NCBI GenBank assembly: GCA_051294905.1 | Contig: CM119371.1 | Location: 31,870,001 to 31,930,000, forward strand | Length of the DNA: 60,000 nucleotides | Reading direction: 5' to 3' | Source: Botryllus schlosseri | Lineage: Eukaryota | Part shown: positions 119-25,237 of the stretch, one piece after another | How positions within the stretch are numbered: position 1 is the first letter of the stretch | Layout: each line of letters starts with the position of its first letter | The notes under the pieces: model-generated | Told to the model about the DNA's origin: nothing | What the model saw: the letters and a program-made list of their open reading frames with translations, nothing else | Database searches by the model: none | Translations under genes and position numbers: made by a program

Positions 119-319
119 GCTGTGACCATCTTACGGAATTTGGATCTATTTCAACGAGCTCGGAAATTTCAAGATATTTAGACATGGGCCGTATATCCTG
201 TCGAGATAAGAATGCCGTGGGCGGTCGGGCGGTATTTAGCAATGGCAGTGAAGCAGTTCAAACGCAATGTCTTGCTGATGCTACGTGGAAAGATGTGAAT
301 AACATAACTTGCCTGTATC
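119..319 (+). CDS. Copy A exon 3: sushi/CCP (SCR) domain
   Basis: tttag|GC...TATC|gtgagt, 201 nt, phase 1-1. Encodes GCDHLTEFG...ISCRDKN...TQCLADATWKDVNNITCLY, with four Cys and a Trp before the last Cys. Confidence 0.85.
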
Positions 320-3300: not shown

Positions 3301-6300
3301 CTGTTCGAGTTCGGCAGTTACGGTCCTGGTTACGAAGCACCTAAGTAGGGAGTACCAGATTTTTGTTATGGTTTTGAGCGAACACAAAATCCAATCCTTG
3401 ACGATTGAAACGACGTTTACAAAAATATAATAAATAACCAAAAGACCTGAACCATTTATATGACGTTTTGATAGTATATCAACGATAATTATGACACAGA
3501 AGGCAATATTATCATTCCAATACCCTTACTACAGTTAAACAGCTCTTCCATTACGCCTCATCCCAACCTGAATCGGAAGAACATATCTTGCTATTTCGAT
3601 AATGATTTCGTGAAATACTTCCATCAATCTACCCATACCTACTCGTCTACATCTACCTTAAACATCCTATGTGAGTATGAACTAGTAGGGAATGCCGTGA
3701 TCAATACGTAAAACTGTGTATTTCTCTTCAGTTGGACCTCATCCACCAAATGGATCGGATTCGCTTTGCTCATTTCAGAACGGCTCGATTGCGTTTTACA
3801 CCAACCCACCAGAAATCGGAAGTTGGTTATCGCTCATAAAAGGTAGTGCTATAATTCTGTATTTTAATATAAGGTAATTCAAACATTTTTAATGTACTTC
3901 ACAGTCTGTTACACTGAGCCATATCTCCAGTGGGGTGTGTATAGAACATGCATCATAACAAGGGGTGGCCAGCCTGCGGCCGTAGAAGGAAATTTGTGCG
4001 GGAGAGGACACGTATTTCGATTAGTATGTGTTGCAAGCAGTCGACGTGCAATTTGAATTTATGAATTGACTCTCGAATTTTTGAGAGATTTTTATTATTC
4101 TTGAAATTTTATCCGCGCTGTGCGTGATTCTGCGCGTGATTCAACGCGACATCCTTTTCGATTTCAATGTGGTAACCCGTTGCGAACTTTGCAATCCAAC
4201 CCTAATAGTAAAGACGTGAACAGAACAGGAAAATGATGCAACATATACCAACTTGGAATCGTGTAATACTCACCAAAGAAATTTGTTTCTGGTACGTGTG
4301 GGCGATTCCAATATCTTTCCACTATAGTGATAATCTTGGTGGGAGGTCAAGAAATAATAGCATGCAACAAAGTGACTAACAACATTGGACCAGCAGAAAA
4401 TCCATCATCATTTATTACTTGCCCTAAATTTTCGAAAACACCTCTCCATCAACTCTACCGGTGAGCTGATTACATGGGCTGAGAACGAATAAATGCTCGA
4501 TAGGAATATGTTAAACTACTAATTTTACTGACGCAATTCATTCGTAAATCTAAAAAACTTTCGCGACCATAACGAATCCCAGAAACTATTCATGACATGT
4601 CCATGACCACTCGCGATTTCGATGCATATAGCCGATCACAATAAATAGATTAGTCCAGAGTTCACAGTAAATGGACATGAACTGGACAGTTTAGCATGGG
4701 TATTTGCCGTCCTGTTAGTTTAGTTAGCAGGACTATGCGCCTGAATAAGCATAAGTATTCGAAATGCGGCCGTGAATATCGAAAAGGTTGGCCACCCCTG
4801 ATCATATTCATTATTGAAAAAACGATCAATGTGACTCAATGAGCGGTGGCAGAAATTGAATCGCCCAGCAACCCACTCAGATGCAAGCAAACATCCCTTC
4901 AACGGCGTACAATCATAATGAAGACGGCAGTAATACCGACATATTTTCAAGGAGATGCAGAAGTACCAAGTATCATAACGGGGTGCTGTGGACAGATGTA
5001 TGGCGTTCACGGGAAAATGATCACACCGCGTTACACTGTAAAGAAAGATCTATATTATGATAATCCCAATATCATGGAAGACTGGAAATGTTATTCTATT
5101 CAGCTCAACGACGCGGTTAACCTGAGTCTGCGAGCAAATCTTTTGGGACACGAATATTACGCGGTGGTGCCCTGCGATAACATGACAACTGTTCCAGGTA
5201 TCTGTGTTTAGAAACCTGTAGACTATTTTGTTGGATTCAAATCAAGAATTAAAGGCTAATTTTACAAATCCAGATGACTTAGATGACTCTCTGATAATTC
5301 CCATTGTGTGTGTTGGAGCGGCTATGCTATTAACAACCATCGGGCTCGTCATAATATGTTGGAAGGAATGCGGTAAAGGTAAACATGTACATTGGACAAG
5401 CCTACCTAATTATCATTGGTGCAACTCAACTTCATTTCGGTGCGCCAAATTGCAGAAAACTCAAACAATGATGGCGGTAAAGTTGAAAATAGCAATCCAA
5501 TTCATGGAACATCAGATTACGATAATGTGAATCCAAAACCATACGAACAGGTTTTGAACCCACTTTCTGGAATTACATCCAGTGAGCAAAATGACACGGC
5601 AGTATATGAAGTATATTCAGTTGAACATAACAGGACTGAGGAAGGTTTGTTCCCAAATTATACTATGTAGACACGTTTCCATGGACCCAAAGTCAACTCT
5701 GCCCCCTCTGTTCATAACTTCGTCAATATTGCAGCGTCATCTGTTTTACTAAGTCACAGATGATAAGTAACATAAAGTAATTGATGAAATAAAATGAACC
5801 GTAAAAAATAATATCCCTACCAGACTGGTTCCCAGCCTGTGGTACGCGAAGGTCATCCAGGTGGTACGCGAGTAGAATCTGTTCGTTTTTTTTTCGACCG
5901 AAGTGAGTTATTAGCTCAGGTGGGGTTGACTTTATAAGTTTTTTGAAGCCATCGTCGTCGTGGGTAGGGACAATCCCACCAATGACGGCCTACGGCAGGG
6001 GTGACCATCTGACCAACCTGCAGCTGTAAAAGGACATTTGTGCGGTCGAGCGGACACGTACTTCAATAAGTATGTGTTGGTGACCGTCGACATGCAATTT
6101 CAATTTACGAATTGACTTAATTAATCTTGAACTTTCCTTCGCGCTGGGCGCGATTCAATGTGTCTTCATTTTTCGATTTTAGTATAGTAGGGCCCTTTAC
6201 AATTGGAGTCCCACATTTCAGATTCGAAGAACAGAGTAAAATAATGCTCCCCATATAGAAATACCAACTGGGAATCGTGTACACCTAACTATACCGACAA

Positions 6301-7170
6301 TCTTGATGGGAGATCAAGAAGTAACAGCATGCAGCAAAGTGAATAATAGCAATTGGCCCACCCGAAGATGCATTATCATATATAACTTTTCGAAAACACA
6401 CCCTCCATCAAGTCTACTGATGAATATGACCACATTCACGTGCTGAGAAAGGACAAATTTTTGATTGTAATATGTAAAACTACTATTATTAATCACGAAA
6501 TTCATAAGTAAATCTTGAAAAAAATTCGCGCTCGGCGCGGAAATGCTAGCAGTCCCATAATATCACCTGTGACCACTAGCCATTTCGGTGCGTATAGCCA
6601 TCCTATATGATTAAATATATTAGTCTCGACTTCACGAGAAATGGACATAGACACTATAATGTGTGCATTTGGCGTCCACCTATAGTTAATTACGACTATG
6701 CCCTGGAATGTGACCGTGGGCTACATGAGTAGTTGAAATGCGGCCATGCAGTGCAAAATGGTTGGCCACCCCTGGCCTAAGGGGAAGAGATCTAGTTGTA
6801 AAGCATTGGGATTCTTACCTAACCAAATTCCGTTTTAATATATTTGAACACAGGAATTCCAAATTGATCCACTTGCACCTTAAAATGGGCAGTTTATTTT
6901 CTGTTTCGCTGCCTTTGATACCTCAACGCGGGGGAAACATTTTTGACCGCCTTCGGCGCGCGTAACTTTTGTAGGTGGTACGCGAGCACTGCATAAAACG
7001 TCGAAATGGTACGCGGCTTGAAAAAGGTTGGGAACCACTGCCCCTACAATATATCCATCCTGGCTACCCCTATTCTATTAACTAATAAGTCTCTGTTAAC
7101 ACTTGTAGGTAAAAACAAGTCTCAAGAACCGACCGGGGACGCTAAGGCTATTTATTCCGTCGTATATTAA
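119..7170 (+). CDS. Receptor copy A (5'-truncated by window): sushi + Ig-like ectodomain, TM, Tyr-motif tail; exons 119-319, 1282-1442, 3535-3670, 3732-3842, 4952-5197, 5274-5378, 5456-5644, 7109-7170
   Basis: All eight exons have AG/GT boundaries and compatible phases, giving one open frame to TAA at 7168-7170. Each exon has a matching paralogous exon in copy B. Confidence 0.85.
771..1100. mobile_element. Unclassified MITE with inverted subterminal repeats and a GGTTAGGGTT-rich core
   Basis: catgcgacac/gagcatg units on the left are mirrored on the right; degenerate TTAGGG centre; ends imprecise. Confidence 0.4.
1282..1442 (+). CDS. Copy A exon 4: N-terminal half of an Ig-like domain
   Basis: aatag|CA...CTG|gtcagt. 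Encodes PINAELRING...LLNCSIKD...NNKL. Paralog at 22096-22256. Confidence 0.8.
1894..2972 (+). mobile_element. Non-autonomous hAT (Blackjack-like) element with decayed transposase 5' part
   Basis: TIR CAGGGTTGCCA / TGGCAACCCTG; TSD cttatatc/ctcatatc; subterminal GTCCTTATTTT repeats; fragments HCNICNCD and AAEGT*AFHTVKHQQSFLSNDCTS. Inserted in an older element (~1783-3130). Confidence 0.85.
3535..3670 (+). CDS. Copy A exon 5: C-terminal half of the Ig-like domain
   Basis: acag|TTA...CTAT|gtgagt. Encodes LNSSSITPHPNLNRKNISCYF...TLNIL. Confidence 0.85.
3732..3842 (+). CDS. Copy A exon 6
   Basis: Follows a 61-nt intron; ttcag|TT...AAAG|gtagt. Encodes FGPHPPNGSDSLCSFQNGSIAFYTNPPEIGSWLSLIK. Confidence 0.8.
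3960..4800 (+). mobile_element. hAT (Charlie-like) MITE in copy A intron 6
   Basis: TIR AGGGGTGGCCA / TGGCCACCCCTG; TSD atcataac/atcatatt; empty site in copy B near 23012. Confidence 0.8.
4952..5197 (+). CDS. Copy A exon 7: membrane-proximal Cys-containing domain
   Basis: tcaag|GA...CCAG|gtatct, inside ORF 4846-5211. Encodes GDAEVPSIITGCCGQMYG...VVPCDNMTTVP. Confidence 0.85.
5274..5378 (+). CDS. Copy A exon 8: transmembrane helix
   Basis: ccag|AT...AAAG|gtaaac. Encodes hydrophobic LIIPIVCVGAAMLLTTIGLVIICW followed by K. An alternative in-frame acceptor 9 nt downstream is possible. Confidence 0.8.
5456..5644 (+). CDS. Copy A exon 9: cytoplasmic tail with SDYDNV, PYEQV and VYEVYSV
   Basis: tgcag|AA...GAAG|gtttgt, inside ORF 5416-5670. 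Confidence 0.8.
5821..7040 (+). mobile_element. hAT MITE in copy A intron 9, hosting 5996-6774
   Basis: Ends CAGACTGGTTCCC / GGGAACCACTG; subterminal GGTACGCG repeats. Confidence 0.7.
5996..6774 (+). mobile_element. hAT MITE of the same family as 3960-4800
   Basis: TIR CAGGGGTG / CACCCCTG; TSD gcctacgg/gcctaagg; interior colinear with 3960-4800. Confidence 0.8.
7109..7170 (+). CDS. Copy A exon 10 (last): GKNKSQEPTGDAKAIYSVVY*
   Basis: ttgtag|GT acceptor; paralog at 25164-25237; AATAAA shortly downstream. Confidence 0.75.
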
Positions 7171-7774
7171 AGAAAATGAAAAACAAATAAAAGGTAACAT
7201 CACAATCCGTTGTAACCATAACGATCAATGGTTTATTGCGCCAAGTTAAAAAAAAAACTAATCGGTTTTATTCCTAATAACGCAATATGGGCTGGAAAGA
7301 TGGTAGCTAGAGTTATGTTTTTTTGATTCTCAAGCATATGCCATGCTGCAAACTAACCGGGGAAAGTGTTCGAAATTAAAAGGCTTGTAGTGCAGTGAGT
7401 TGTCTAACATTCGTGCCGAAGGAAAATTACCATCGTAAAATTCGAAATTGAACTCTATCAAAAATACACAGTTGCACCTCCATAACACAAAACTGCATAA
7501 GTATGCACCAAGCGACGGTGGCGGAACGATGTTTTGTTTTAAAGGATAGGCGTCTTGGGGCATCTCGTGCGAACAAGAAAGTGTGCAAATATATCGACTG
7601 TACCAGTGGCATTTGGACATATCATGAGAGAAGCCGGAACTAAAGTTAAATATCCAATTTCAGATTTTGTATGCACTTGCTTCAATTTCATTGACATACA
7701 TTGTGCGTACAATTATCTATATACGAGCTATTGAATACACATATTGTCCATTTTCCGTGTTTGGATGTATTACC

Positions 7775-8207
7775 TAGGGTTACCATACGTCCCCCTCTAG
7801 GATGATTTGTCGTCCTTCTTCCAGAAATTGAAAATGTCCGCCGAGGACGCGTAAATGTCTTTCTTTGTCAATTCGTCCTCATTTACAGATTTTGTAGATA
7901 TGGCTAATGGACAGTGTCAACTGAAAATCGGCCTAAATGAAGCGAGATATAGGTAATGCGGACGTTCGAGCGAGTCATTCGGCAGTCGAATCAGATTGAT
8001 GACTTTTTTGTAGTCAAAACCAAAGCAGTACCGTGAAAAGTGAGTAATTCGGGAGTGGAGTCGATATGGTGACCTTTTTGTCTTTAGTCAACACGCTACT
8101 ATTGATCGAAAAATTTTCTACATCACCAGTTTTCATTTTCGGTACTAGAGCTTACTGAATATTTGAAAAGAGTTCTGTTTTTCGGATCTCGAAATATGGT
8201 AACCCTA
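7775..8207 (+). mobile_element. hAT Blackjack-like MITE
   Basis: TIR TAGGGTTACCATA / TATGGTAACCCTA; TSD gtattacc/gtgttacc; empty site near 25983 in the copy B flank. Confidence 0.85.
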
Positions 8208-9485
8208 GTGTTACCAAGGTAAAGAATCACCCATAATATACATGCGCTGCTATTTGACATCAGACCCATAACCTTGTTTTGTGGTGCCTGGTCCGCACAG
8301 GCACAGCTCAAACGTTTTATCTAGTAATACGATTTCGAGGGTATCAGAAATCGGTATTTTCCGGTAAAGGCATGAAGTTCCGACTGATATGAGAATCCGT
8401 CAATGTCGCTTCCCGAAAGAGCGTCAGTGATGAAAATCAGCGGAGTTAGCCTTGTGATAACTAGCTAACTACGCAGGCTCCACGAGTTCAATTTTCACCA
8501 GAAGCCGAAGCGTGGACGATTTGTCTGGGCTCCTTATCCTTTATGTAGCTTGTTATTAGGGCGAAAACACAAAAAGTCCAGAAGTAGACCCGATGAAGAA
8601 GCTATTCAAAGAAGCAAATGTACAGAACAAGACTCTATATTATAATACTCTAAAGAGAACGACAGCAGAATAAAGATTAACATCGAATAATTGACATGGG
8701 GCACTAGGAAGAGGCGGGTGCCAGATTAAGGGCGGAGATAATAAAGTTAACTGATCCGGGAGAATGCTAATCATGTGATTAAATACTGCTAATCGTGACG
8801 AGTAAAGTTGGAAAAGGTAACGCACGATGGTTAGTCGAGGTGTCCCGAGTTTTCAATCAAGTGGCGTTATCTGGTGTACCATAACGTGAAAACGCGCTAT
8901 ATAGGCTGTCAAATGTCAATTTGTTGAATGAAACAGCAGCCTGATGAAAAAACGATACTGCCACTGTAATAGGTAGACTTATTCATCATCGTGAAATGAA
9001 AGTCGTGTCCAATTTGTACGGTACAGCTAGGATTATTGAATATTGATATCGCTCTGCAATGGTGGGTACATAATTCGTTGATTATTTAGTGAAGACATTA
9101 CCTAGGAGACAATCGGCACGGCCATTATCGGGAATAATTGTGAGTATGAATGGTACGCAGTGTACGCAGTTATTATAGTTAGTTATCTATAGTTTGTTCC
9201 GGCTTGTTAAATGGTTGGATTACCACTAACTTTATGCGCTGCGAGCAACCGGTTTCCTTAATCTTGGGTTGATCAATCCTGACGACCGCGATAATCGACT
9301 TCATTGCTAATCCAACTTTATTATCTCCGCCCTAAGAGACCGTATGGCCGTTTCAGCATCCAGCTCTCCTATCTGTTGATTGCATCGCATTGTGTCTTGT
9401 GTATCGTGTTGTAGGCTACATTGTAGGCTACACTTGTACCAATATATCAGGGGTCGGCAACCCCATTTTTCATGACACCCTATAT

Positions 9486-10198
9486 CAGGGCCGGCCAACC
9501 CGTGGCCCGCGAGAAGGTTTTGAGTGGTCCGCGAGGTAATTTCCGAGACTAGTAATATTATCAAAAATGGATTGCACAGATTGTGAACTAGAGAAAGGAC
9601 AAAGGAAATTTGATAAGTCTGGCCTCAACCCTTGAGATGTGATGACTAAAATATCAGTTCCGACGCATTGGCAGATCCATGAGCCAGGCACATTTTGGTA
9701 GATCTTCGTACACTACAATGAAGCAGAATAATTTGCGATAGATTTATCAAAAGTTAAAAATTTCTACACGCTTCGCGCAACATGTTGTTCCTCGATTTCT
9801 TGCGTTTAATATTGTTACCCCTTTGTGAAAATGAAAGAACGCCTAATGTATCAGATTGAATCTAACTATATTCGTATCGTTCAACATCTGCGACCTTGCT
9901 TTTGCGCTCGCAGAAAGACCGTCGACTATGAAACCTAGGCACAAAATGATTGACGCATGTTGGTCGAAGCTTTCGATATCGATATGTCCATTGTCCAGGC
10001 GCCGAATAGTCCATTCCTTGGAAACTGAACCCAGCGATATACAGTATGGCCGCAATATAGTGACAATAGTGACAAGTGACAATATTATAGACCCATATAT
10101 GTACTTCGAAAAGTTTTCGCGCTTCGCGTGGCTACTGGCCCGCGCAGTTGTTCGTCAATCGAATGTGGCCCTTTGGCTGAAAAGGTTGGTCAGCCCTG
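9486..10198 (+). mobile_element. hAT (Charlie-like) MITE
   Basis: TIR CAGGGCCGGCCAACC / GGTTGGTCAGCCCTG; TSD ccctatat/ctctatat. An inverted partial relative ends at 11739. Confidence 0.8.
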
Positions 10199-11764
10199 CT
10201 CTATATGATTGGACGCACACGACATATCAAAACCATGTTTGTTGCAAAAGCAGCCAAAGTGAAACAAAAGTTTCCAAAATAGAACAATCTCGAAGATAAC
10301 CAAAAATTATTTCATGAATCAATATGAAGTAGCCTTTTGCGGCAAATTTTATTTATACCGAAACATTTCACCGCGCTTCGCGCGATTTAGTGGAATTGGA
10401 TTTCTGGACTTTATTTTGGGTAACAAATGTATCCGGAGAAAAAAAAACTATAAAAATAACTAGCGCAATATACATAAATGAGTCCAACAGCATTAGCAAT
10501 TATGAGAAAACTTCTGCCTAATCTCTTATGATGCCGTTGAGATGTTTCAGCCTAATAAAAACCGGCATTTCGGTGCGGCGCATTTCCACGCCAGGAGGCA
10601 CAAAACATGTAACATTTCGGGCAACATGCGAATCCGTGAAGTGCGCAGCTAAACTGATTTGCAGCGATAAAACCGTGAAATAAGATAACCGCCTCATAAT
10701 GACCAAACCCGTCGATACTGTTATGTTCAGGCCCCGAAATGACCTGCACCGAATAATCCTGTGCTCGCAGCCTGAGCCGTACGGTGCAAATGAGACCCCA
10801 GAGGAATGTAATGTAGCCCGTGACAAAATGCGAGGCTTGAATCGGCTTGGTCTTGGCCTCGCGAAAGGAGATTTTCTTTTATTTTGTCTGGCACGAGTAA
10901 GCGATTCCAATAGATTTAGAGCAGCGATTATATTTGCCGCGATCTTTGGCGCTTTGTAGACAACCTAGTGCCAGATCAACTTTAAAGTGACATCAAACCG
11001 ACTTGTATGATACAGGGATTGGCACATTTTGCATGATCAAGCCACATGGTCGTAACGACCTTGCTGCGATTGTCACTTATTGGCTATGGTACCGAAAACA
11101 GTGGACTTGGAAACGACCAAAGCAACCACAGAAGATCGATCTTGGCGCGATCAAAGATTTTTTGCAATAAATTAGGCAACTTTTATGTATACAATAAACG
11201 AGAGCCGCATCAAAATTCATACCTTTCGCGACCAATACTTTGAAAACCGCTGGCGTGAACGATGCCTTTGCCGGCTTCAGATAAGCGGTTGTTGGGACTT
11301 TGGGAGGGATTCCTTGCCTAAAAAGATAATTATGACAGAATTATAAACGTCTAGCATGCTGGGTTAAGTTTGCAAGGACAGGACTAAATCAGGCGTTTTA
11401 TCGTTTTCAGGAGGGGGTAGGCTACAACAAAAGAAATCGTGTGACAATTAAACACGCGAAGCGTGAAGAAAATTTTTACTACTCTTTTAGTTTACTGTAA
11501 TGTACGACGATTTACTAAAAATGTGACTGGACCCTGGATCTGCCAATGAGTCGGAACTGATATTTTAGTCATCAACATCCCAAGTGTCGCGGCCAGACAA
11601 ATCATATTTTTGGTTGGCCTTGCAAGTTCACAATCTGAGCAATTCAATTTCGATAATATCATGGGAAATTAGCTCGCGGGTTGCTCAAAACTTTCTCGCG
11701 GGCCACATTGGACCGGAGGCCGCGGGTTGCCCACCCCTGATAGACAGACACATTCGATAGTTTC

Positions 11765-11904
11765 CAGAGCCGGAGCCGGAGCCAGAGCCGGAGCAGTGGT
11801 AATAATGCAGCTCCGGAGCTGGAGCCGGAGCTAATGTAAGATAGAATAAAGCTTTGGAGCCGGAGCCGGAGCAATGCATATTTACAGCTGCTCTAAAGCC
11901 CTGC
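11765..11904. repeat. GGAGCC hexamer array, probably one end of a hAT MITE
   Basis: (GGAGCC)n followed by AGCCCTG; explains the low-complexity ORFs at 11659-11879. Confidence 0.6.
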
Positions 11905-13054
11905 TGGGCTCCAGAACCGGTTTATATTGCCGCATTTCGCCTTCACCCACCCTTCGATTTTAATGAAATATATTGCATTATTTACTATTGCTATTATTAT
12001 CGAATGCACAGTTTGAGTTACGGTTCAACATGATATTCATTTTATGTTGCTGTCGTGAATGCGTAACAGGTAGAACACCATTTTAAATGCGTGGGTATAA
12101 GCTGTCATGGATGCCTCGCTTCGATATAACACCTGATCTACTGCGTGGATCCTCGTGTTTCCGCGATTGCAGGAAGACCATCGCATCGTAGTTTATTATT
12201 GCTTAGTGATCTCTAGTTTACTATAACAAGCTTATTATCAAGCGTTGTTTGGTATTGAATGACGATGCAGAACAGATTCAAGAGTTTTTGCGTATATTAT
12301 CGAGCTGGATGCTCGTTTTCTGAATTGTTCTAAGGTCACAGTGGCGGGTAAATCCTAGCGTGCGTTTCTAACTTTAAATTTCAAATGTCGACTAACTCAA
12401 GACAGGTATATACTTCTGCGCCATTCGCAACAAATTGTAGAGGCATTTTTCGGTCATTTTATTATACGCGGGACAAGTTTTTGAGTGAGTTTTTGAAGAG
12501 ATGGTTTTCATCCTAACAAACTGTTCGAGATACAAATTGCTGATCATGAAGGGGAGGTTGCCTGTAATGACATTTTCGGAATCGGAAAACATAAGAAGAG
12601 ACCTAACGGGCGATTTGATCCCCACATATGAATTAATTCATTCATCACAATTTTGCTTGACGGAAAGACGTAGCGAGGAAGAAAATTAGGAAATGAACTT
12701 TGAAAATACAAGAAGGCGAGAAGTAGTAAACTGATGACGCTAAAATATCCAACTGAGGTACTGTATGACCAAGGGCATTTTTCACTCGCCTGGCTACACG
12801 TTCGTCGCCCGTGCTAGTAGCAGTAGTGATATATGTATACGATGTTCCTTTTCATTCCCTGCTAGTTGCTGACGATTGTCCCTGACGAGTGTCACCCGAA
12901 AATATTCGGGTTTACTTAAATATGAATATATACAATTCAATTGTTTATTGAAGTTCTGTAACTCTAGGAAGCTCTTCGTATATATTTTAGCTTAGAACTT
13001 TATTCAAGTAATTAATGACTTTCCTCTTATCACTGACATATAAATGTATATATA

Positions 13055-13969
13055 CAGTCGATTCTGCTCAATTCAGACAGTTTTCTTACGCTCACTATTT
13101 GCCAAATTAAGCGGAGAAACAGTTTTGATATTTTAAATTTATGCAAATGTTCTAAAAATTTTCTCGCCCGTTGCGTGATTCAATGTTGCTAACTATCTTG
13201 TTTGTTGGTTACCCTTCCACCAAGGAAAAAATATGCATTATTTATAGAAATAGGCATTTCAGCGTCGGCCATTACCGCGCCACGACACGACACGTCAAGG
13301 CATATGAAGTTTAGGCCAACGTGGGACTCCGAGAAGTGTGCCTACCAGATCAACAGCAAGAAAACTTTGGAACAAAAGGACTGCCCTTATGCTGACCGAA
13401 AACTAATTGGGCGCATAAATGGCTGGCCATTAGCCAATCTTGGTTTCCTGACAATCTGAACACCACATAACAAAGTCTAGTACGTTTGAGCAATTTCAAT
13501 ATCTTTTGGCTATAGCAGACAGGACGAGGTCACGAAATAACAACATGTAAGAAAGTGATTATACCAACAGAACAGCCCACCGGGAAATATTTAATTAATT
13601 ATGTGACATACCTTTTTCAAGATAGCACCTCACTCAGCTCTACCGGTAAATTTGATTACGTGGACTGAGAGAGGCTAAAAAATTGAATCCCAATATATAT
13701 GCAATAAGAAATATTAATGACGTATTCAATCATGAATTATCAATCATGAATCATGAATTAGCGTGATTAGGCTAGAATAGGTAAAGTCGTTAACTAACGG
13801 AGTAAAATAAATGTCGCTCACAGGTAATGGTGAAAACAATCAATAAAATAGAGGGTCTGGGGGACGAAGTAACAGATGTTTTTAGGTGCAATTAATTATT
13901 TTGTTCCGTTCACGAGCATATTGGCCGGTGGCATGGATTATCCAGTGTCCAAATTAAGCGGATTCAACT
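13055..13969. mobile_element. Tc1/mariner pogo/Tigger-like non-autonomous element
   Basis: ta|CAGTCGATTCTGCTCAATT ... AATTAAGCGGATTCAACTG|ta; TA TSD. Confidence 0.65.
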
Positions 13970-14368
13970 GTATATAAAATGCTACACAAGCACGCTGCGA
14001 GTAACTCGTCGCTTTTACTGTGGTTCCACACGTCATATGCAAGGTTCTTCGTTTGGGGAAAGCATTCGAAACAGTAATTCTGCCAAAATTGCGGGTATAT
14101 TACCCTTTCGTAATCTAGGGGCCGGGAAACAGAACCTGAAATCTCACATCAGTACGCTCATAAAAGTTTTTGCTTGTCACGAAATCATTGAGACATTGAT
14201 TACGATTGAGAAATTGTCCTTCATCAGCTGTTACTCATAGAAACTACTTTTGATCGATTCGTTTATCATTAGAGACTATGATTCTACATCTACAGAATGA
14301 TTATAGTTTTTACTCATCTAGTTTAATAACAATCTACTTTTGTTGGTCGATTTACGATACTAGTTGAT

Positions 14369-14492
14369 ATGACCCGGCAGAATATCCAAACGATGTTCAG
14401 TCAGTGGACACTGATTATTATTTTTCTGATCTTGATGCAAGTCAAACGCCAGGAAGGACATTTCACGTACCGTCTGCAGTGTAAACCATTTG
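14369..14492 (+). CDS. Copy B exon 1: signal peptide
   Basis: MTRQNIQTMFSQWTLIIIFLILMQVKRQEG with a hydrophobic core; donor TTTG|gtaaga. Confidence 0.75.
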
Positions 14493-14770
14493 GTAAGATA
14501 TATGATATTACTTACACAATCAGCATACTGCAGTCTAGTAGAGGCGAAAGTTGAACACTAGTCTAATTTTAATATTTGATCGAAATAATAATTGTAATAA
14601 CTTTTATCCCGCATTCTGAAATCGAGTAACATTTAGATCGACTGACTGACAAACCTTGACCACTCATGGCGATGACTTGGATATTCAGAATTGGTCGCTT
14701 TCTAAGAGTTATCAGCCTAGCAGGATACCTGCATCTAACTCCGCATTGACTTCGTTACATAATTTTCCAG

Positions 14771-15118
14771 GACGCGTTACACAAGCTGTTCGCACAAATT
14801 TTTCTGTCACTCTTATTAGTGGTTGTAGGGAGGGAGACAACAACTATACTTGTGAGATTAAATACAGCATCCGTACGGGAGTAACAGCAGACGCATTGCA
14901 AATTATTACATCTCTTGACGGTCCGAGAGCTAATACTACAATGCATGAAGGACTGATAATCAGATATGAGTGGACGATTATCAAAGATGATGGTCGAAAA
15001 TCGGTTATGTTCAATCTAACTATATCTTCATCTGATGAACCTGTCACCGTTCATTTAACGAGTCAGTACCAACGAAGTTGTATGGAAATTCAAGACTTGG
15101 TAACAATATATTTTAAAG
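14771..15118 (+). CDS. Copy B exon 2: 116-aa N-terminal, probably beta-rich (Ig-like?) domain
   Basis: ttttccag|GA...AAAG|gtcaga, phase 1-1, inside ORF 14656-15186; several N-glycosylation sequons. Confidence 0.75.
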
Positions 15119-15528
15119 GTCAGAAAATTTCACTGTTTTCTAAGAAACTGATTTTTATTTGTCATAGATTAATCTTGCATTGGTGAGGTTGGGCAGACTT
15201 ACACATACCTTATGCTTGTTATGCGATGTATATTAATTTCCGCTTTGGACTCTTGTTTTGTTGCTGTCCCATATTCCAGATGTTTCGACACAAATGTTGA
15301 TTTTTGACGAGGCTGATATTCTACTTATGTTTCCCGAGCTGTAACACTAGACTAGAGTACGGCCCATTGTCGTTCTAGGCACGCGCTCAGGCGAATGCAC
15401 CGCATACCGTAGTCCGATACGTTTTTCCGTGAAATCTCATTAGGATTCAATTATTAACTGCGTCTGTATTGTAGTGGTGGATTGTTTTGCACATTGGGTT
15501 AGATTGTGCCTCCGACAGTGTAACAATT

Positions 15529-16050
15529 CACAGGTGGTCAAATACGGACTCGGCGGTGGTACTCAAGTAGAAGTATGTAGAAGCACCCCGTAAATTACTA
15601 CAAGTACTACCATTAAACAAGTAGAAAGTAGCGATTACAAAGGCATGTGAAAACTACTTCACGTGAAGCTACAAAACAAAGTCCTGAAAAGTACTGAAGA
15701 AAGTAGTTTCAAAAGTAAACTAGATCGAAGGGTCGCATACTTTTAGCAGTTAATTGAAGGCAACACTTTTGAAAATGCAGGATGCTTTTCCGAGACCGAC
15801 AGAAAATGACTAATGATACAGGGACTGTTTCGCCCATCAGTAGCCACCTCAATTTCATTCATAAAATTGATGCAAACATATCTCAACACTATACTCAATA
15901 CTTCACAAAATACAAAGTGTCAAAAGTAAGGGCTTGCGTAGAAACCTTTAATTAGAATTTGAAATAGTCACTCTAGTATGCAGTTCAAGTAGCCAAAACC
16001 TACTTGAGCACTCCAAAAAAGTACAAGCACTTCGTTACTGACCACTTCTG
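15529..16050 (+). mobile_element. hAT MITE with AAGTAG/CTACTT subterminal repeats
   Basis: Ends CACAGGTGGTCA / TGACCACTTCTG; same family as 17366-18625 and ~26278-29284. Confidence 0.7.
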
Positions 16051-16416
16051 TGTGATATTCGATTGATCAATCCGCGCCATATGCAAAGTTACTCTTGAAG
16101 ATATGGTATTTAATTAGCGTAGCCTGTGCTAATTGATGATAATTTCTAGCTATACCTACATCCATCTGTTTGGCGGGAACTATCCTATTGCTCTGCTTCA
16201 CCATCGCCAATCTATGCCCTTAGTGCAGTGTCTAAGCATAAACGTAATCCAAACTTTCCATCAACTTGGACTCCATGATATTGGCCATAGAATGATCGGC
16301 ATGTGTAGGCCTACTTCTAATGAATCGATTCGGCCTTGATATTTCAACCGTATGGATTACGCAGGTGATAAATTGGATCCATCTATTAATGTTGAGTTAA
16401 AGTGATTCGTATTTAG

Positions 16417-16617
16417 GTTGTGGCCATCTTACGGAATTTGGATCTATTTCAACAAGCTCGGAGATTGCTAGATATCTAGACACGGGCCATATATCCTGTC
16501 GCAATACGAATTCCGTGAGCGGTCGGGCGGTATTTAGAAATGGCAGTGAAGCAGTTCAAACGCAATGTCTAGCTGATGCTACATGGAAAGATGTCAATAA
16601 CATAACCTGCCTCTATC
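16417..16617 (+). CDS. Copy B exon 3: sushi/CCP domain
   Basis: 201 nt, paralog of 119-319. Encodes GCGHLTEFG...TQCLADATWKDVNNITCLY. Confidence 0.85.
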
Positions 16618-17365
16618 GTGAGTAAATATTTATTATATCCATGAAATATTTACGGTTCTGAGCATGATTATTGTAGTCACGTGAGAAACATCGAGTACTA
16701 GACAAACAGTCGGATGTATTACAATTACGATTGGGCACAATGATTTGAGTACTCTACTCTGAATGGAGCATTAATTCTAATGATTTGAGTTGATGAGCAG
16801 TGAGAGGCGAGTAATGAAATTATGCGCTCCTTTCCACGTAGTACTCAATTTATCTACGGAAATGACCGTTTCTATAGTATTTTACAGTGTTGGCATGACT
16901 CGAGTCACCTTTTACGTGTGAGTTGACTTGACTAGAGTCACTTTGCAAAAATGACTCGACTTGACTTGACTCGACGCTTCATAAATGCAAATTGATTCGT
17001 GAATCGAAGCAAACTTTACGAGTCAATTTCAAGTCATTAAGTAATCGATGTCGACTAAATCGCCGATTCTTGTATAAGTTAGGATTGCTTACCAATCACT
17101 GAATGATTGTTCGTTTTACCGAGCCTCCATTGTTACATCACAACGTATTTGGTCAGAGCATACAGCTTACAGCATACGTTGTCGTAAATTTGCTCACCCT
17201 ACCAACCCTCTTGTATGATTTAAATCAGAAGTCTCAAACACGCGGCCCGCGAGTGCATTTTATGCGGCCCGCGGCGTCATCTTGGAATTTCAAGTGTTCA
17301 ACGATATATTCGAGAGTCATATATCTTTTTTATATATAAGAGCTTAACGTTCACGCTAAAACTAC

Positions 17366-18625
17366 CAGAGGTGGTCAAAGTAGTCAAGAAAGCTACTCAA
17401 ATAGAAGTAGAAGTAGCGACGGAAAAATCTACTCAAGTACGAGTAGGAGTACTTCTTCCATGAGCAACCTAAAACTACTTAAAGTAGAAGTAGAAATTGC
17501 TGGCTTTAAATCTACTCAAGTAAGTAAGTAGTTTTCAAAACGGTCATAATACGTTCGCATGGACTTTCAAAAGCTGCAAATTGAGCTGCGTGCGGAAGGT
17601 GCAGAGAGCTTCATGTACAATGCATATTGATGCATCCCAGAATGTATATATTTCCGACAGCATTAGCAACAAATGATATTAGTGAAATAGAAATGAGATA
17701 CCAATCTTTTGTTTACTCGAACATCCCGTTTTAGAAAATGTCATGGCTTGTTCCCTCACCCATATTACGGCCTTTAGTTTAGTTGAAGAGCAATACGGAG
17801 AAGTTGTATGAATACGACGTTAACACTTTGTGCGATTCGTATACGATGATAAAAAAAATATGGCGTATCGTAAAAATGCCATATAGTGTAATTGTATTTT
17901 GGGAAAGTAGACGGCGATGCTACATTTGCTTTTAAACTTAAGCATGTATGTTCTCCAGACAAAAGAAATGAAACTAATTAGAACTCTTAGTAATGATACT
18001 TCGAATTGAACGAGAACTACCAATACTACATCAGAAAAGCGGAAAATGTATTCTATGTCTTTTGTCGAGACAGTTTTAACGGTGGTCTGCTAAAACAGAT
18101 CTAACGCTTATTAAGTCACAGCCCACTTTTCCAGATTAGGACACGCCATGGGCTGCTAGATTACGATATGATAGGTAAATGCTAGACTGCGAAACGGTTG
18201 TTTCAAACGTTATGATGGGCCATATTTACTGTGATGAAATACGTCATATGCGCGACAATGCGGTGCAATGCAACCTGCAACCTAAATAATATTCCCTTTC
18301 GCGAAAACATATTTGTAACTCTATATTTACTTGATGTGAAGCGCGACGGAAATTTTGGGTTTGACATAAATTTTCCTAAAATTGAAAGTTAAAACTCCGT
18401 GAAAACAGCCCGAGAATTCCCCAGTTTCTCTTTCTAGTTGGAGGGTTACACTACTTCTACTTGACAAACTGAAAATAGCGAGAAGTAAGTAAGTAGATCA
18501 CAAAATATTACGAAGTAGAAGTAGAAGTAGCGAATATTATATCTACTTGAGTAAGTACCAGAAGTAGAGGAAAACTACTTGAGTACTTCGAAAAAGTAGA
18601 AGTACTTCGTTACTGACCACCTCTG
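17366..18625 (+). mobile_element. hAT MITE (third layer)
   Basis: TIR CAGAGGTGGTCA / TGACCACCTCTG; perfect TSD aaaactac. Confidence 0.9.
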
Positions 18626-19177
18626 AAAACTACTATGAAAATCACTGAAATCTCAACAAACTTCACTATCATATCACTTTTAAAAGCTACCAAGCGGTAG
18701 AAGATCAGCTATTACGCTAGATTTCTAGTTCATGATGATGAAACATGACCCGTCGATGATTCGTGACTGAAAATTGTGATTTGGTTTGGTGCGACCGTTT
18801 CGTAAAGTTACACGATTTCGGATTGACTGTGTGATTAAATGAAAATGACTCCAGTTGAGTCAGGTCAAACCTTAAAATCAGAGGTAGACTTGCGTCTCGG
18901 AACGGTGACTTGGTAATCCTACGGACGCAACAATCTATGAAACTGTCATGGGGAATAGTAATATATCAAATGGTCGTAGCTTGCGTTGCGTAGGGTATAT
19001 AGCTATTTAATGAGGTCAGTATGGCAACCATTGGTATCCTGTGACCACACACTCGTGACGTATTGTGACTTGTTGTTGGTTATCTTTATCCCTGTTATTA
19101 TCGGTGGCCAGTACGGTAGTAGTACGCTCTACAGCTGTAACACCAATGAATTCTTCGACGGGTGAACATTTATATTC

Positions 19178-19462
19178 CAGGGGTTCTTTTCTTAACCAGG
19201 GTCCGTAGACCCCATCGGGATATGAAGCACCAGATCAGGGTGCGCGAGATGCATTGTGGTAGGCCTATATGCTGTTGAATATTTTCTTGGCCAGTTTCTG
19301 CAACTGGAAAATAGTCTACGTGCTACGCGCGATTTCATGTGAATGGGCTTTCTGATTTTAATATAGGTACTATTGGAAATTGTTTTGAACATGGACAGGG
19401 GCTACGAGAAATCTTATTGAAAGCACAAGAGGTACGATCGCTAAAAAGGTTAAGAAACAATG
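19178..19462 (+). mobile_element. Short Charlie-like MITE (third layer)
   Basis: Ends CAGGGGTTCTT / AAGAAACAATG; TSD not clear. Confidence 0.5.
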
Positions 19463-19769
19463 CTATAACTATGGTTCAATAATGATTATATTTCAGTTGT
19501 TATTGATATGTTCCAATAATAATCGAAGGCAAAATCTAAAGCTGATTTAATTTGACTTTGGCAATAACAGTCACAATAGCCTATAGCCTACTTATCACGA
19601 CTATATCAAAGCCAGGAATAGGCTACACCAAAGAATGTAGAACGACATCCTACATTCTTTGGGCTACGCCGCTCAAATGCTTTGATATCAGATCAATCTT
19701 CAGTATATTTCAAAATATTCTACATAAACTAGTGGCACGTCAAAGGTCCACTAGCTGCAATATTATAAG

Positions 19770-20757
19770 CCGGGTTGCCATCGACATGGACCAAAAAATA
19801 AGGACAGTCAAAAATTAGATTAGCATTAAAAAGCGTTTTGTACATAGCTTGTAATTATACGAGCCGTGACATAAGGCATTCCATACTTTTCGCCAGAAAC
19901 AATCTGCTCCAGCAACTCCTTGTTATTAGAAAGTGCTTCATGGATCTCACGACAGCTCAGGTCTAGATTTACCTTTACTCAGTGCCGAAACAGCACTTCG
20001 TCGTGATCGACTTGTGAAAAATTTATTCATCGACTGGCTCGAATTAATCGTTATGACACACTTCTGGTGTTTTAGGTATCAATATGAGTAGAAATAGTGG
20101 TCTTTCCTATGGCCTCCAGGTTAATGTCACAATTGCAGATATTGCAATGTGCGAAACACTCGCATTTGAATTATTCTCTCTCATAATCGTCACGAAAAAT
20201 GTTTTTTCGCCTGCTCATTTTGACTGATCAGATTTAGCCTTACTTGTAAATAAAACTATATGTGCAATATAATTTGAATAAATTTATCAATGATTTATGG
20301 CTTTACCACTTTTTAGCCCAAGTGTCGACTGCACTGCGCCTTTTTTCACTGCGCAATAAATGTGGCCTTCCCCACAGCTTATTCTGCTGTAGACTAAACA
20401 GCAGGAACCTGGTACTGCTGTTTACTGCTAAATGACGTCCGCTGCCGTAGCTTTTGGTACAGACGAAACTGCTATACCACCACTCCCTGCCCTAGCTTCG
20501 CCACTTGAAAGTCAAATCTTATGTTGTGTACGTCACGAGAGTTCCTTTCATTTATGATGTCATAAAATCTCGACGCAAAAGCATAATTTTAGAATATTAT
20601 GCAACACAGATACCAGAGGATAACGATCGAAGTTCTGTAGTGGTTGAAAATAAGACAAAATAAGGACGCAAGTCCAAAATAAGGACATTTCTTGGAAAAG
20701 ACGTGACCCTTCAAAATAAGGACAAATCTTAGAAATAAGGACGGTATGGCAACCCTG
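19770..20757 (-). mobile_element. Blackjack-like hAT element, inverted relative of 1894-2972 (third layer)
   Basis: TIR CCGGGTTGCCA / TGGCAACCCTG; perfect TSD attataag; reverse-complement similarity to 1894-2972. Confidence 0.9.
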
Positions 20758-22095
20758 ATTATAAGCCTACAGTTTTAGATGTCTATAACTCATTGATTAA
20801 AAAAATTATGCCGGCACAAAAACAATTCTATTCAAATATTTGAAAATGTAATTTTTATCTGTGTCAAGCGTGAATAGTACGATACTAAATTACATTTCCA
20901 CGATGTTTGTGGAATGCCTGTTTGCAAGGTCCCGTCAATTAACGCCTACATGGCCATTATACATTGAATATCGCTACTATTGATGCTGCGGCCCGCGGCG
21001 TCATCAAAATCTAGGAAATTGGCCCGCGAGCGCATTTTAGTTTGAGACCTCTGATTTAAATCGAACGAATATCGTTTATACGTTTATAGTTGTATATCAT
21101 GGATATGAAGGTGGCTACGGTATTGCACCATATCATATTTTGGACTTTCTGAGGTTTCGTATGTTATCCTCTATTTTGGCTGATAATTATAGACTGAGAC
21201 AATACCGCTATACTTCCGTAGTTTAGCAGTTCTACCTATGCGGGAGTGATACAGCGCCTTTTAGCGTGTACAATCAACTATTTATCCGTTCCTCAATTCA
21301 AAATAAATGGGGAATTCATCTGTATTTAAAACAGCTAGCAAAACGAAATCCCTCTAAATCATGTCTCGTACTTGGAAAATCTAACTTGTCTTGACTAGTG
21401 ACTTGACTCGTGACTTGACTTGACTTGACTTGACTCGAGTCACTATTGAAACATGGGTGACTTAACTTGATTCGAGTCAAAATGTGAAATGACTCGAAAT
21501 GACTCTTGACTCGAAGGTAGTGACTTGATCCCAGCACTGGTATTTTTTACTCTGGCAGCCTTGAAACCTCGATTGATCGTATTATACTGAACGGGTGATA
21601 AAAGTCTACGCACGATGGTGGAAATGACTTTTCTGTGCAGTGATTAATCCACAGCATTGCCACAGAGTGCAATGAAATAGCCATGGTCGATAAAATGCCA
21701 AATTATCTTTATGTGGAGTGGAACTTGCATGAGGTTATTTGTGGTAGTATAAAAGGTACACATTTGAACTTCCCACGCCTTTCATGATGTTATGACGTAA
21801 TAAGATTTGGGTCTATCTCTAATATTCGACTCGACTCGAACCCTAATACCCGATTAAAAGTCGCATCACTCAGGTGCTCGCTTTTACCCTGCCATTATTA
21901 TAAATATCAATATTTCGATGCTTTTGACCAGTTTTCCCATCCACGGATAATTTGGCCGTATTTTATGACGTCTGCAAGAATTCCATGGAAATTGAATTTG
22001 ACCGACACGGGCTACAATAGCTTGACTGACAATTCATATAGCTTCTTGAAATCTTCCTGCAGCCCGTTCATAATTTTCCCATTTTTAACCAATAG

Positions 22096-22256
22096 CAATC
22101 AATGCCGAGCTGAGCATTAATGGCAATCTCTACAACGAAACGGTGGATTTGACTTACAACCAATCGGCGTATGGTAATAATACGATCTCGTTGAACTGTT
22201 CTACAAAGTATGAACTAAGGAGAGCAATGGCAAAATTTGTACTGAACAACAAATTC
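22096..22256 (+). CDS. Copy B exon 4
   Basis: aatag|CA...TTC|gtgagt. Encodes PINAELSINGNLY...SLNCSTK...NNKF. Confidence 0.8.
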
Positions 22257-22612
22257 GTGAGTATCCTAATGTATTCTGAACGCTGAAAATGTTTCGAACA
22301 GATTCCCTATAGGCATTACGCTTTAACGCAGAAATAAGTTGCATCCTTAAATAGATTTTAGAATTTTGCGTTTGTCCATAATTCCACATGACTGAATCGA
22401 GTATTGCGCATGGTGTATTGCGTGAGTTGCCATTTTTGAGGGCTTTGAGTGAAAACAAAATCAATTCCTCGATACGCGAACCATTAAAATGCCGTTTCCA
22501 TAAATATCGTGACTAACCAATAGACCTGGACCATTGATACTGCATTTTGATAGTAAATTAACGATAATTGTGACACAAAAGTAATATTATCATTCTAATA
22601 CCCTTACTACAG

Positions 22613-22748
22613 TTGAACAGCCCTACTATTACTCTTCATCCTAACCTCAACCGGAAGAACATATCATGCTATTTCAAGAATGATTTCGTGAAATACTTCC
22701 CCCAATCTACCCATACCTACTCGTCTACATCCAAATTAAACATCCTAT
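22613..22748 (+). CDS. Copy B exon 5
   Basis: acag|TTG...CTAT|gtgagt. Encodes LNSPTITLHPNLNRKNISCYF. Confidence 0.85.
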
Positions 22749-22809
22749 GTGAGTATAAAGTCAAGGATATTGTCGTGATCAATTCGATAAACTGTGTCTT
22801 TCTCTTCAG

Positions 22810-22920
22810 TTGGACCTCATCCACCAAATGGTTTGGATTCGATCTGCTCATTTCCGGATGGCTCGATAGCGTTTTACTCCAACCCACCAGCAACGGGAAG
22901 TTGGTTATCACTCATAAAAG
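22810..22920 (+). CDS. Copy B exon 6
   Basis: ttcag|TT...AAAG|gtctcg. Encodes FGPHPPNGLDSICSFPDGSIAFYSNPPATGSWLSLIK. Confidence 0.8.
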
Positions 22921-23513
22921 GTCTCGATTTTATTCGAAGTTAATTCAAACATTTTGAATGTACTTCACATTCTGTTACGCTGAACTATATCTTCATATAG
23001 AACACGCGTGCATCATAACCGTTAATGAGATGACGATAAATGTAACTCAATGAGAGGAGCACAAAGTTGATTCATTCAGCAACCCACCCATTACTCATGC
23101 AAACATCCCTTCCACGGCGTATAAGCAAAACGAAAATGCCAGTACGGATTTAAATATTCGGTAATACGATAGATTATGAAGTGACACATATATAGTGAAT
23201 ATTTTCGGTACTGCTTCTCATGCGTAACAGTCATCAAAATCGTAATTCTCGATTGTAAGATTGTACTAAACAGCACGAATTTGAATTTCCCATCCCTATA
23301 ATAAATGAGAGGTATGGAGACTGGTGATTGAGGTCAATTCTTCGAAAGCTATAGTATAATTAAACGGGAAACGTGCCCTAAATATGATGTGGTCGCCAAT
23401 TAAAGATGAAGGTGTGAAAAGCATTTTAGCAGCAACAATTTTCCACGACTCCTTGAGAGGAGATTTTATTTAACTAACGCTCAGCGCCCCTTTAATAATA
23501 ACATCTTTTCAAG

Positions 23514-23765
23514 GAGATGCAGAAGTGCCAAGTACCATTACGCAGTGCTGTGGGCGGATGTACGGCGTTCACGGGCAAATGATCGCACCGCGTTACAATG
23601 TAATAACTATCTATATTCTATATTATAATAATCCCCAGATCATGTCAGACATGGAATGTTACTCTATTTAGCAAAAAGAGTTGGGTAACTGGAGTCTACG
23701 AGCAAACCTTTCCGGACACGAATATTACACGGTGGTGCCTTGCGAAAGCATGGCAACTGTTTCAG
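23514..23765 (+). CDS. Copy B exon 7 (contains the premature TAG at 23669-23671)
   Basis: Encodes GDAEVPSTITQCCGRMYG...ECYSI*QKELG...VVPCESMATVS; splice sites intact. Confidence 0.75.
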
Positions 23766-23993
23766 GTATCTTTATTTAGATACGTGTGTATTACCCATAC
23801 CAAACCACGAGTTTTTGTTTGTTTTGGGGTATTCATGGTGTTTGTCGACTACTATGGTCATTTACACCAGGCCGATATTCTTCTTATTTTTCCGTATCTG
23901 CCGACTTGTAGCACGGCCCACCTCTAGGCTTTTTGTAAGACACCGCTGACGCGGATGACCACCACGACTTAAAATCTACTACTACAAATACAG

Positions 23994-24089
23994 GTGACTC
24001 ATCTATGGTAATTGCCATTGCGTGTGTTGGAGCTGCTTTGCTATTAGCAACTGGTATCATCCTAATATGTTGGAAGCGATGGAGTAATG
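23994..24089 (+). CDS. Copy B exon 8: transmembrane helix
   Basis: acag|GT...AATG|gtaaac. Encodes MVIAIACVGAALLLATGIILICWKR. Confidence 0.75.
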
Positions 24090-24168
24090 GTAAACATGGA
24101 ATAGCCTATACCTACTTAGCATTAGTAGCCTACTACTCAATTTCCGTGCATCGAAATTCGAATCGCAG

Positions 24169-24348
24169 GAAACACAAAGATTGATGTCGATAAAGTTGAA
24201 AATAGCAATCCACTTTATGGAACATCAGATGACGCACATGTGGAGTCAAAATCAAACGAGCAGGTCATGAATCCACTTTATGGAACTGCATCCAGTGGGC
24301 AAAGTGACACGGAAGTATATTCTGTTGCTTATAACAAGGAGGAGAAAG
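24169..24348 (+). CDS. Copy B exon 9: cytoplasmic tail with two NPLY motifs
   Basis: cgcag|GA...AAAG|gtttgt. Encodes ...NSNPLYGT...VMNPLYGT...EVYSVAY. Confidence 0.75.
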
Positions 24349-24384
24349 GTTTGTTCCCAAATTACATTTTGTGGGGCAGTAGCC

Positions 24385-24991
24385 CTGAGTCGTATAACCA
24401 AGTCACAAGGTTCCAAGTCACAATTCAGTTCAACTTTTTGCAGTTTTACCTCGAGTCAAGTTGAGTCATTTTCAATTCACCACCGAGTCAAGTCCGAGTC
24501 CAAGTTAACTAGTAAATGGTAGAGTCCGAGTAATGGTGTTTTGACTCTCGAGTCCTAATCCAAGTCTTTATGTTCACTGTTTAATTTTCAGTTCAATTCG
24601 GTTCAACCCACTTTTTTCAACTCTGCTTGAGTGATAGAATGGCCCACATTCATAATATAGTAATTTTCCTTCAATCCTAACAGCTACTGGCCCTATTGTC
24701 CGGGTATCAGGACAGATAGACGAAATACAAGTAATGTGGTAACTTTACTATTCTTCGAAGTTACAACGAAATGTATGTCTTGGCCGTCTTCGTCGCGAGT
24801 CATATGACTTGGTTCGAGTCATGTTCAATGACTCGAGTAGGCTACAAGTCGGGTCAATACGAAAATTAACTGGAGTCGAGTCTAGTCATTTTAGATATTT
24901 GAAAATATGACTCGAGTCACGTCGAGTCACCAAAAAATCGCGACTCGAGTCGGACTTGAGTCGAGTCATGATTCGAGTCAGTACAACCCTG
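24385..24991. mobile_element. hAT MITE with GACTCGAGTC repeats in copy B intron 9
   Basis: Perfect TSD cagtagcc; right end TACAACCCTG; absent from copy A. Confidence 0.8.
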
Positions 24992-25163: not shown

Positions 25164-25237
25164 GTGTAAACAAGTTACAGGAGCCGACTGGGGATACGGG
25201 TGACCTATACTCTGTCGTAGACAAAAGAAAAACTTAA
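25164..25237 (+). CDS. Copy B exon 10: GVNKLQEPTGDTGDLYSVVDKRKT*
   Basis: ctag|GT acceptor; end of ORF 25001-25237. Confidence 0.75.

Follow-up and report, generated by a model that had tools for sequence, protein, structure and literature searches.

We analyzed a 60,000-nucleotide (nt) stretch of the Botryllus schlosseri genome (NCBI GenBank assembly GCA_051294905.1, contig CM119371.1, positions 31,870,001 to 31,930,000 of the forward strand; hereafter the window, with coordinates counted from its first nucleotide) that holds two tandem receptor-like genes, copy A and copy B. Judged by motifs and spacings, both are likely divergent relatives of the Botryllus Fester co-receptors (FcoR), from a branch absent from the published FcoR set. 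A preliminary description of the locus had read the tyrosine differences between the two cytoplasmic tails as a reciprocal swap of signaling motifs. We favor, with reasonable though far from complete confidence, a different account: A and B are FcoR-like tandem duplicates, B is disabled, and the tyrosine differences arose by unconstrained loss following duplication and not by a selected swap.

Results

Self-comparison of the window identified two same-strand paralogs, A at 119-7193 and B at 14393-25238. The B model has 10 exons and 9 introns, all GT-AG and phase-compatible, and comprises 552 codons counting one internal stop. The last 8 exons of A lie inside the window, joined by 7 GT-AG, phase-compatible introns and free of internal stops; its signal-peptide and first-domain exons would sit upstream of the window, and its layout is known from the sushi-like exon on. 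The ectodomains are 76% identical at the amino-acid level over 283 codons. No third paralog or plausible extra transmembrane exon was found in the window by tblastn with the A and B exons or by a hydrophobicity scan. Both tails likely splice on to a further exon with a common terminal YSVV, because the donors are conserved (5645 in A, 24349 in B) and an in-phase, conserved downstream exon is present in both copies, with differences biased towards third codon positions (6/4/12 by position). Given this conserved donor and the coding signature of the last exon, read-through tails ending at 5670 and 24464 were rejected as the main form.

The only internal stop of the B model is a TAG at 23669-23671, in an ectodomain exon upstream of the transmembrane helix, where A has CAG. 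Every splice path via exon 23514-23765 includes this codon, and in the simplest model the NPLY-bearing tail of B is therefore not translated. Compared with A, the donor preceding the stop exon (22921) is changed by a 12-nt gap and looks weakened. Early stop codons trigger nonsense-mediated decay, and a stop 94 nt before a junction, with further junctions beyond it, is a usual trigger. Near the stop exon, about 348 nt of B (23145-23492) are absent from A, so that the A segment 4887-4929 ends up only 22 nt from the next acceptor. This segment and its B counterpart (23099-23141) form a candidate cryptic or former stalk exon, in which 6 of the 8 differences fall on the third position of one reading frame (p about 0.06, post hoc).

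The tail differences themselves are largely as first described. In B, an identical 17-mer with NPLY occurs at 24207 and, 63 nt further on, at 24270, and the four single-base tyrosine codon differences are all present (A/B: CAT 5503/TAT 24216, TAC 5518/GAC 24231, TAC 5542/AAC 24255 and TCT 5566/TAT 24279). The count of four falls short, as the same exon holds a fifth (CAT 5626/TAT 24330, His/Tyr), and a sixth lies at the C-terminus, where A has Tyr and B Asp. The 9-nt duplication ascribed to A is a real insertion (5599-5607), but the copy is imperfect, with 8 of 9 letters the same. The NPxY consensus is found twice in the B tail, downstream of the TAG, and is absent from the A tail; two NPxY motifs arose in only 3 of 50,000 shuffles of the B tail, yet both are copies of one internal repeat. 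Core-1 motifs (YxxI/L/V) number three in A and one in B, next to the two NPxY, and neither tail has a strict core-2 motif ([AD]VYxxV), the nearest match being one conservative residue off.

The internal repeat gives these differences a direction. The tail exon is made of two 63-nt units, identical at 30 of 63 letters in B, each opening with N-P-x-[Y/H/S]; of the four unit copies in A and B, three have a Tyr 13 residues later. Comparing the four units polarizes eight changes: seven on the A branch, including both NPLY tyrosines, and one on the B branch, the +13 Tyr (p=0.07). For the Tyr of SDYDNV, the repeat units give no polarity. Because of this comparison, we consider it likely that the ancestral tail had both kinds of motif and that three of the four switches first listed were losses. 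The two tails do carry different motif sets, but what was described as a reciprocal swap would be mostly loss from a multi-tyrosine ancestor.

The number of switches is at most marginally above neutral expectation. In neutral simulations (20,000 under each of three assumed ancestors), the probability of at least the observed number was 0.031, 0.036 and 0.104 for tail exon 1; for the whole tail it was 0.077, 0.059 and 0.206. Both maxima belong to the all-tyrosine ancestor, which is the one favored by the repeat. Tyrosine turnover beyond neutral expectation, on which the idea of a signaling switch turned, is thus seen between A and B as a slight excess (P 0.03-0.21), and tail tyrosines (2 shared, 6 private) turn over no faster than other tail residues (45 shared, 60 private; p=0.47).

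Constraint differs sharply along the two genes. For the 202 codons upstream of the stop exon, the pairwise ratio of nonsynonymous to synonymous divergence (dN/dS) was 0.38 (95% bootstrap 0.24-0.59). It was 1.22 (0.77-2.12) across the stop exon, transmembrane exon and tail exon 1 (173 codons; Fisher p=0.002 for the contrast), with 1.59 (0.68-5.25) for the tail. In the stop exon (15/15/16) and tail exon 1 (14/12/9), differences are spread about evenly over the codon positions; in the sushi-like exon (5/4/10) they favor the third position, as in the last exon. From the stop exon through the tail, differences reach 0.19-0.23 per site, about the level of alignable intron blocks (0.17, a value biased low by local alignment). 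This pattern of divergence fits a loss of constraint from the stop exon through the tail.

The likeness to FcoR was assessed by comparing motifs and spacings by eye and by hand counts against the published dataset of PMC12582321. FcoR are described as proteins with a signal peptide, an Ig, a sushi and two further Ig domains and a transmembrane segment, 520-610 residues long and with sequence similarities of 20-98% among family members (PMC12582321; PMC12065747). Copies A and B share the predicted order of signal peptide, Ig-like domain, sushi-like domain, two Ig-like domains, single transmembrane helix and tyrosine-containing tail, with the first domain encoded by one exon, and the B model, at 552 residues with the internal stop counted, falls within the reported range. 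They are also tandem paralogs with differing tyrosine motifs and have at least two tail tyrosine motifs, core-1 included. Their sushi-like domain has D-x-G-x3-C and C-x3-A-x-W-x7-C; set against FcoR8, the Asp-Cys (6), Cys-Trp (6) and Trp-Cys (8) spacings are the same in both, and the middle Cys-Cys distance is 21 in FcoR8 and 23 here. The Cys-Cys distance of the second Ig domain is 38 in both, ending K-N-[LI]-S-C (K-N-[ILV]-S-C across the set), and the F-x-x-N-P that starts the third Ig domain lies 52 residues past the second-Ig Cys here and 55 in FcoR8. In FcoR, F-[FY]-x-N-P is followed by G-N-D-V, for which the A/B counterpart is G-D-A-E-V, and the terminal D-V-Y-A-[VMI]-V of FcoR corresponds to [DA]-x-Y-x-x-V in A and B. 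An N-x-x-Y followed by a Tyr 13 residues later is likewise present in FcoR tails (by hand count, NVIY to EVY in FcoR4 and NVAY to DVY in FcoR11). Many published FcoR tails have this arrangement, with 21 matches to NVAY and 12 to NVIY in the dataset of PMC12582321. Six FcoR-like motifs follow one another in the right order along A, an arrangement reproduced by 0 of 100,000 shuffles; this figure overstates the case, the motifs having been picked after seeing both sets.

Several features set A and B apart from FcoR. None of 12 diagnostic short motifs of A and B was found in the published FcoR dataset, in which control motifs were found, and the portion of the dataset compared by eye contained no close match; identity with any published FcoR was rejected on these grounds. 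The sushi-like domain lacks the extra FcoR Cys pair, the third Ig domain has diverged strongly in its second part, and the tail has true NPxY in place of NVAY, NVIY or NEIY. A strict core-2 motif is missing, and the last two VY-type tyrosines are 25 residues apart, as opposed to 29-33 in FcoR. The premature stop of B is a further difference, as the main text of PMC12582321 gives such stops only for intron-retaining splice forms. FcoR clusters are reported on chromosomes 5, 9 and 11, where a fester-family gene can be the head-to-head partner of an FcoR, those on chromosome 9 being unpaired (PMC12582321). A fester-family partner for A and B within the window was sought and rejected, as none was found there; the region 5' of A lies beyond the window edge.

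Database searches added one credible relative. An exhaustive HMMER search gave five matches, of which four were repeat-inflated short matches; the fifth, P0001, is a lone sushi-like exon with 58% identity over 66 residues. This more distant exon, on a 1,079-nt contig, shows that at least one additional member or ortholog of the subfamily exists. Homolog searches with the A stop exon, the tail alignment and the sushi alignment scored nothing, no Pfam family exceeded the cut-off in 11 exon peptides of A and B, and the ESM Atlas gave no usable match. A sequence search of the Protein Data Bank returned two weak matches (E 0.4 and 0.7). Predicted folds were of low confidence (pLDDT, the predicted local distance difference test, 57.6 and 44.8), and fold searches gave nothing clear; the first-domain model, also of low confidence, is all-beta, with a best Z of 8.0 to unrelated sandwiches.

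Discussion

We propose that the ancestral tail carried two NPLY motifs, both followed by a +13 Tyr, plus a YxxV at its end. After duplication, A would have lost both NPxY tyrosines and B the first +13 Tyr; SDYDNV could be either a gain in A or a loss in B. Copy B would then be a dying or null copy that stops before its membrane anchor, its message either removed by nonsense-mediated decay or yielding a secreted 404-residue fragment. Copy A, open in all exons of the window, might signal via the YxxV-type sites YDNV, YEQV and YSVV, for which recruitment of SH2 proteins is predicted after phosphorylation by Src-family kinases. YDNV could serve as a Grb2-type pYxN site or as an inhibitory phosphatase site, with equal fit. 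Birth-and-death evolution has been reported for FcoR clusters (PMC12582321), and one duplicate caught with a premature stop is what such a process predicts.

A number of observations weigh against this account. With regard to kinship, one of the six FcoR-like motifs (FYSNP) is missing in B, so the ordered pattern matched A only, and the homolog searches returned no FcoR proteins, meaning that no tool aligned A or B to FcoR. With regard to the stop, omission of exon 23514-23765 (phase 1-1) retains the frame and gives 468 codons. A second contig version of the B tail (23931-24423), in the best DNA run, has 5 other letters, none in the motifs, and keeps both NPLY; this contig stops short of the TAG, so the stop may belong to one haplotype. 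The unchanged NPLY 17-mers, also in this second contig, suggest that the B tail was under constraint until recently. No spliced read for A or B was among the joints listed for three RNA runs, read at 6-13% and with output dominated by repeats. As for the tyrosines, assuming an ancestor with the tyrosines of just one copy, either A or B, brings the P of the exon-1 switch count to about 0.03, and ectodomain tyrosines are far better kept (15 shared, 2 private) than those of the tail (2 and 6; p=0.004). Finally, a dN/dS near or above 1 exceeds the value of roughly 0.65 that would be expected with B alone unconstrained, and positive selection acting on A, or relaxed constraint on both copies, may therefore have contributed.

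The best-surviving alternative, possible if unlikely, is a subfunctionalized pair, with SH2-type YxxV sites retained in A and PTB-type NPxY sites in B, in which the TAG is a recent segregating null and other haplotypes are intact. The reciprocal motif sets, the NPLY 17-mers preserved in the second contig version too and the single clear lesion in B are all consistent with it, and the seven of eight polarized changes on A (p=0.07), together with the tail dN/dS of 1.59 (0.68-5.25), fit an accelerated A. There is also precedent within the family: FcoR paralogs and alleles vary in tyrosine motifs, and FcoR3 and FcoR4 alleles exchange the ITIM (the inhibitory motif of immunoreceptors that is based on tyrosine) and the hemITAM (a hemi form of the corresponding activation motif) (PMC12582321). 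However, the switch count is not clearly above neutral, the terminal YSVV is common to both tails, and donor 22921 of B is weakened as well. No CAG allele at 23669 was among the differences listed in a read comparison that spanned 5260-25259, in which intronic repeats dominated and swamped the output.

It is also conceivable, although quite improbable, that B encodes a secreted decoy whose N-terminal domains compete for the ligand of A while its transmembrane and tail exons drift. Such a protein would end at codon 405 or, with retention of the intron that follows the weak donor 22921, at codon 360. The frame is intact up to the stop, and constraint is confined to the part upstream of the lesion (dN/dS 0.38 versus 1.22), as a decoy would have it. 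Against this, the stop is placed as a typical trigger of decay, and the majority of polarized tail changes fell on A, not B. The main text of PMC12582321 mentions no "secreted" or "decoy" FcoR.

We regard as highly improbable that B skips exon 23514-23765, possibly via the cryptic stalk exon (about 23055/23067-23141), to form a shorter membrane receptor with an NPLY tail. The phase of the exon would keep the result in frame, and the cryptic exon has usable splice sites in B beside its third-position bias (6 of 8 differences, p about 0.06, post hoc); but the junction matches, by eye, the middle of the third Ig domain of FcoR (G-N-D-V-[SP]-S, with 20 dataset matches to GNDV), which would leave half a domain, and no such joint was among those listed. 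An assembly error behind the TAG, with an intact B, is scarcely credible: position 23669 is uncovered by the contigs or reads listed, but seven of eight contig records shown for the best DNA run match neighboring stretches with 0 other letters and 0-1 gaps, and CAG to TAG is an ordinary transition.

SDYDNV, originally described as fitting the ITIM consensus, does match the broad [SIVL]-x-Y-x-x-[ILV] consensus and does so in A only, but such a match arises by chance in 21.6% of shuffled A tails (50,000 shuffles). The ITIM as defined for FcoR, [ILV]-x-Y-x-x-[ILV] (PMC12582321), is matched by neither tail, whichever of the two splice models is used. We therefore rejected SDYDNV as a meaningful ITIM, given that it fits the broad consensus only, arises in 22% of shuffles and fails the FcoR definition. 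The motif fits the Grb2 YxN consensus equally well, although some YxN is found in 59% of shuffled A tails. In DNAM-1, a pYxNx motif binds Grb2 and activates (PMC4647266), and Grb2 and GADS homologs have been reported in Botryllus vasculature (PMC12582321). The resemblance of YDNV in A to this immunoglobulin tail tyrosine (ITT)-like motif is a consensus match only. Because SDYDNV fits both the loose ITIM and the Grb2 pYxN consensus, the sign of the A signal is unreadable from sequence.

The broader proposal of paired receptors with different signaling holds insofar as A and B are paralogous type I receptors with ectodomains 76% identical; the stop in B, the common YSVV and the near-neutral switch count argue against the rest. 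In vertebrate paired immunoreceptors (KIR, LILR, Siglec, SIRP), activating members couple to DAP12 or FcR-gamma through a charged transmembrane residue. Those families share with the present locus neighboring paralogs whose ectodomains are similar and whose tails differ, along with gene birth and death. In contrast, the transmembrane helices of A and B are both uncharged, both copies have long tyrosine-containing tails, B is interrupted, and a strict ITIM is lacking. NPxY motifs bind phosphotyrosine-binding (PTB) domains, and the B tail, with two candidate PTB sites, recalls the tandem NPxY/NxxY tails of integrin beta chains and NPxY sorting signals. It differs from them in that there is no homology, and the B motifs arise from a 63-nt internal repeat behind a premature stop.

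If A and B are FcoR relatives, they extend the Botryllus-type FcoR family by a divergent, uncatalogued branch. Switching of tyrosine motifs has already been published for FcoR alleles and paralogs, which would make the signaling-pair idea, if right, a further example and not a new principle. The N-x-x-Y plus 13 Tyr module in FcoR tails is a testable lead. The main text of PMC12582321 contains no mention of NPxY, NxxY or PTB, whereas its supporting information appendix figures may show such motifs, and a literature search on Botryllus and NPxY found one paper, which was unrelated. A more far-reaching reading, which we hold to be unlikely, is that the locus represents an uncatalogued, apparently fester-less FcoR branch with a tandem NPxY-x12-Y tail, in which the duplicates split the module, the SH2-type tyrosines staying with A and the PTB-type NPxY sites with B, and B segregates as working and null alleles. 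If true, the module would be an overlooked family-wide feature tying tunicate allorecognition receptors to PTB adaptors or endocytosis.

Gene models and neighboring features

Table 1. Exons and features of copies A and B in the window.
Copy	Feature	Coordinates	Strand	Remarks
A	Sushi-like exon	119..319	+	86% amino-acid identity to B
A	Second Ig-like domain, first half	1282..1442	+	Phase 1 to 0
A	Second Ig-like domain, second half	3535..3670	+	KNISC
A	Third Ig-like domain, first part	3732..3842	+	FYTNP
A	Third Ig-like domain, second part	4952..5197	+	Open; CAG at 5101-5103 versus TAG in B
A	Transmembrane exon	5274..5378	+	Helix without charged residue
A	Tail exon 1	5456..5644	+	NPIH, SDYDNV, PYEQV, NPLS, AVYEVYSV; likely donor 5645 (read-through stop 5668-5670)
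A	Likely last coding exon	7109..7193	+	Ends AIYSVVY-stop; YSVV Tyr at 7153
B	Signal-peptide exon	14393..14492	+	
B	N-terminal all-beta domain, likely Ig-like	14771..15118	+	One exon
B	Sushi-like exon	16417..16617	+	4 Cys and Trp at FcoR-like spacing
B	Second Ig-like domain, first half	22096..22256	+	
B	Second Ig-like domain, second half	22613..22748	+	
B	Third Ig-like domain, first part	22810..22920	+	Donor GTCTCG at 12-nt gap versus A, poor consensus fit
B	Third Ig-like domain, second part	23514..23765	+	Contains premature stop
B	In-frame TAG	23669..23671	+	Codon 405 of 552; 94 nt before exon end, 3 junctions downstream
B	Transmembrane exon	23994..24089	+	Helix without charged residue
B	Tail exon 1	24169..24348	+	NPLY (24207), SDDAHV, SNEQV, NPLY (24270), EVYSVAY; likely donor 24349
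B	Likely last coding exon	25164..25238	+	Ends DLYSVVDKRKT-stop; YSVV Tyr at 25208

The same decayed DNA-transposon-like element is found within an intron of A (1886-2978) and within one of B (19764-20765). The two insertions are likely independent, because they lie in different introns and in opposite orientation.

Four repeat structures occur elsewhere in the window. A near-perfect palindrome at 29878-30487 has 276-nt arms, 98% complementary, around a 58-nt spacer, and a tandem duplication of about 1.1 kb with 97-99% identity spans 32867-34824. At 43854-45059, two inverted minisatellite arrays of 22-23-nt G-rich/C-rich units lie within 108-nt inverted repeats and resemble a foldback element. 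The last, at 59290-60000, is an array of 84-nt repeats, similar to a C2H2 zinc-finger gene, that runs past the window end.

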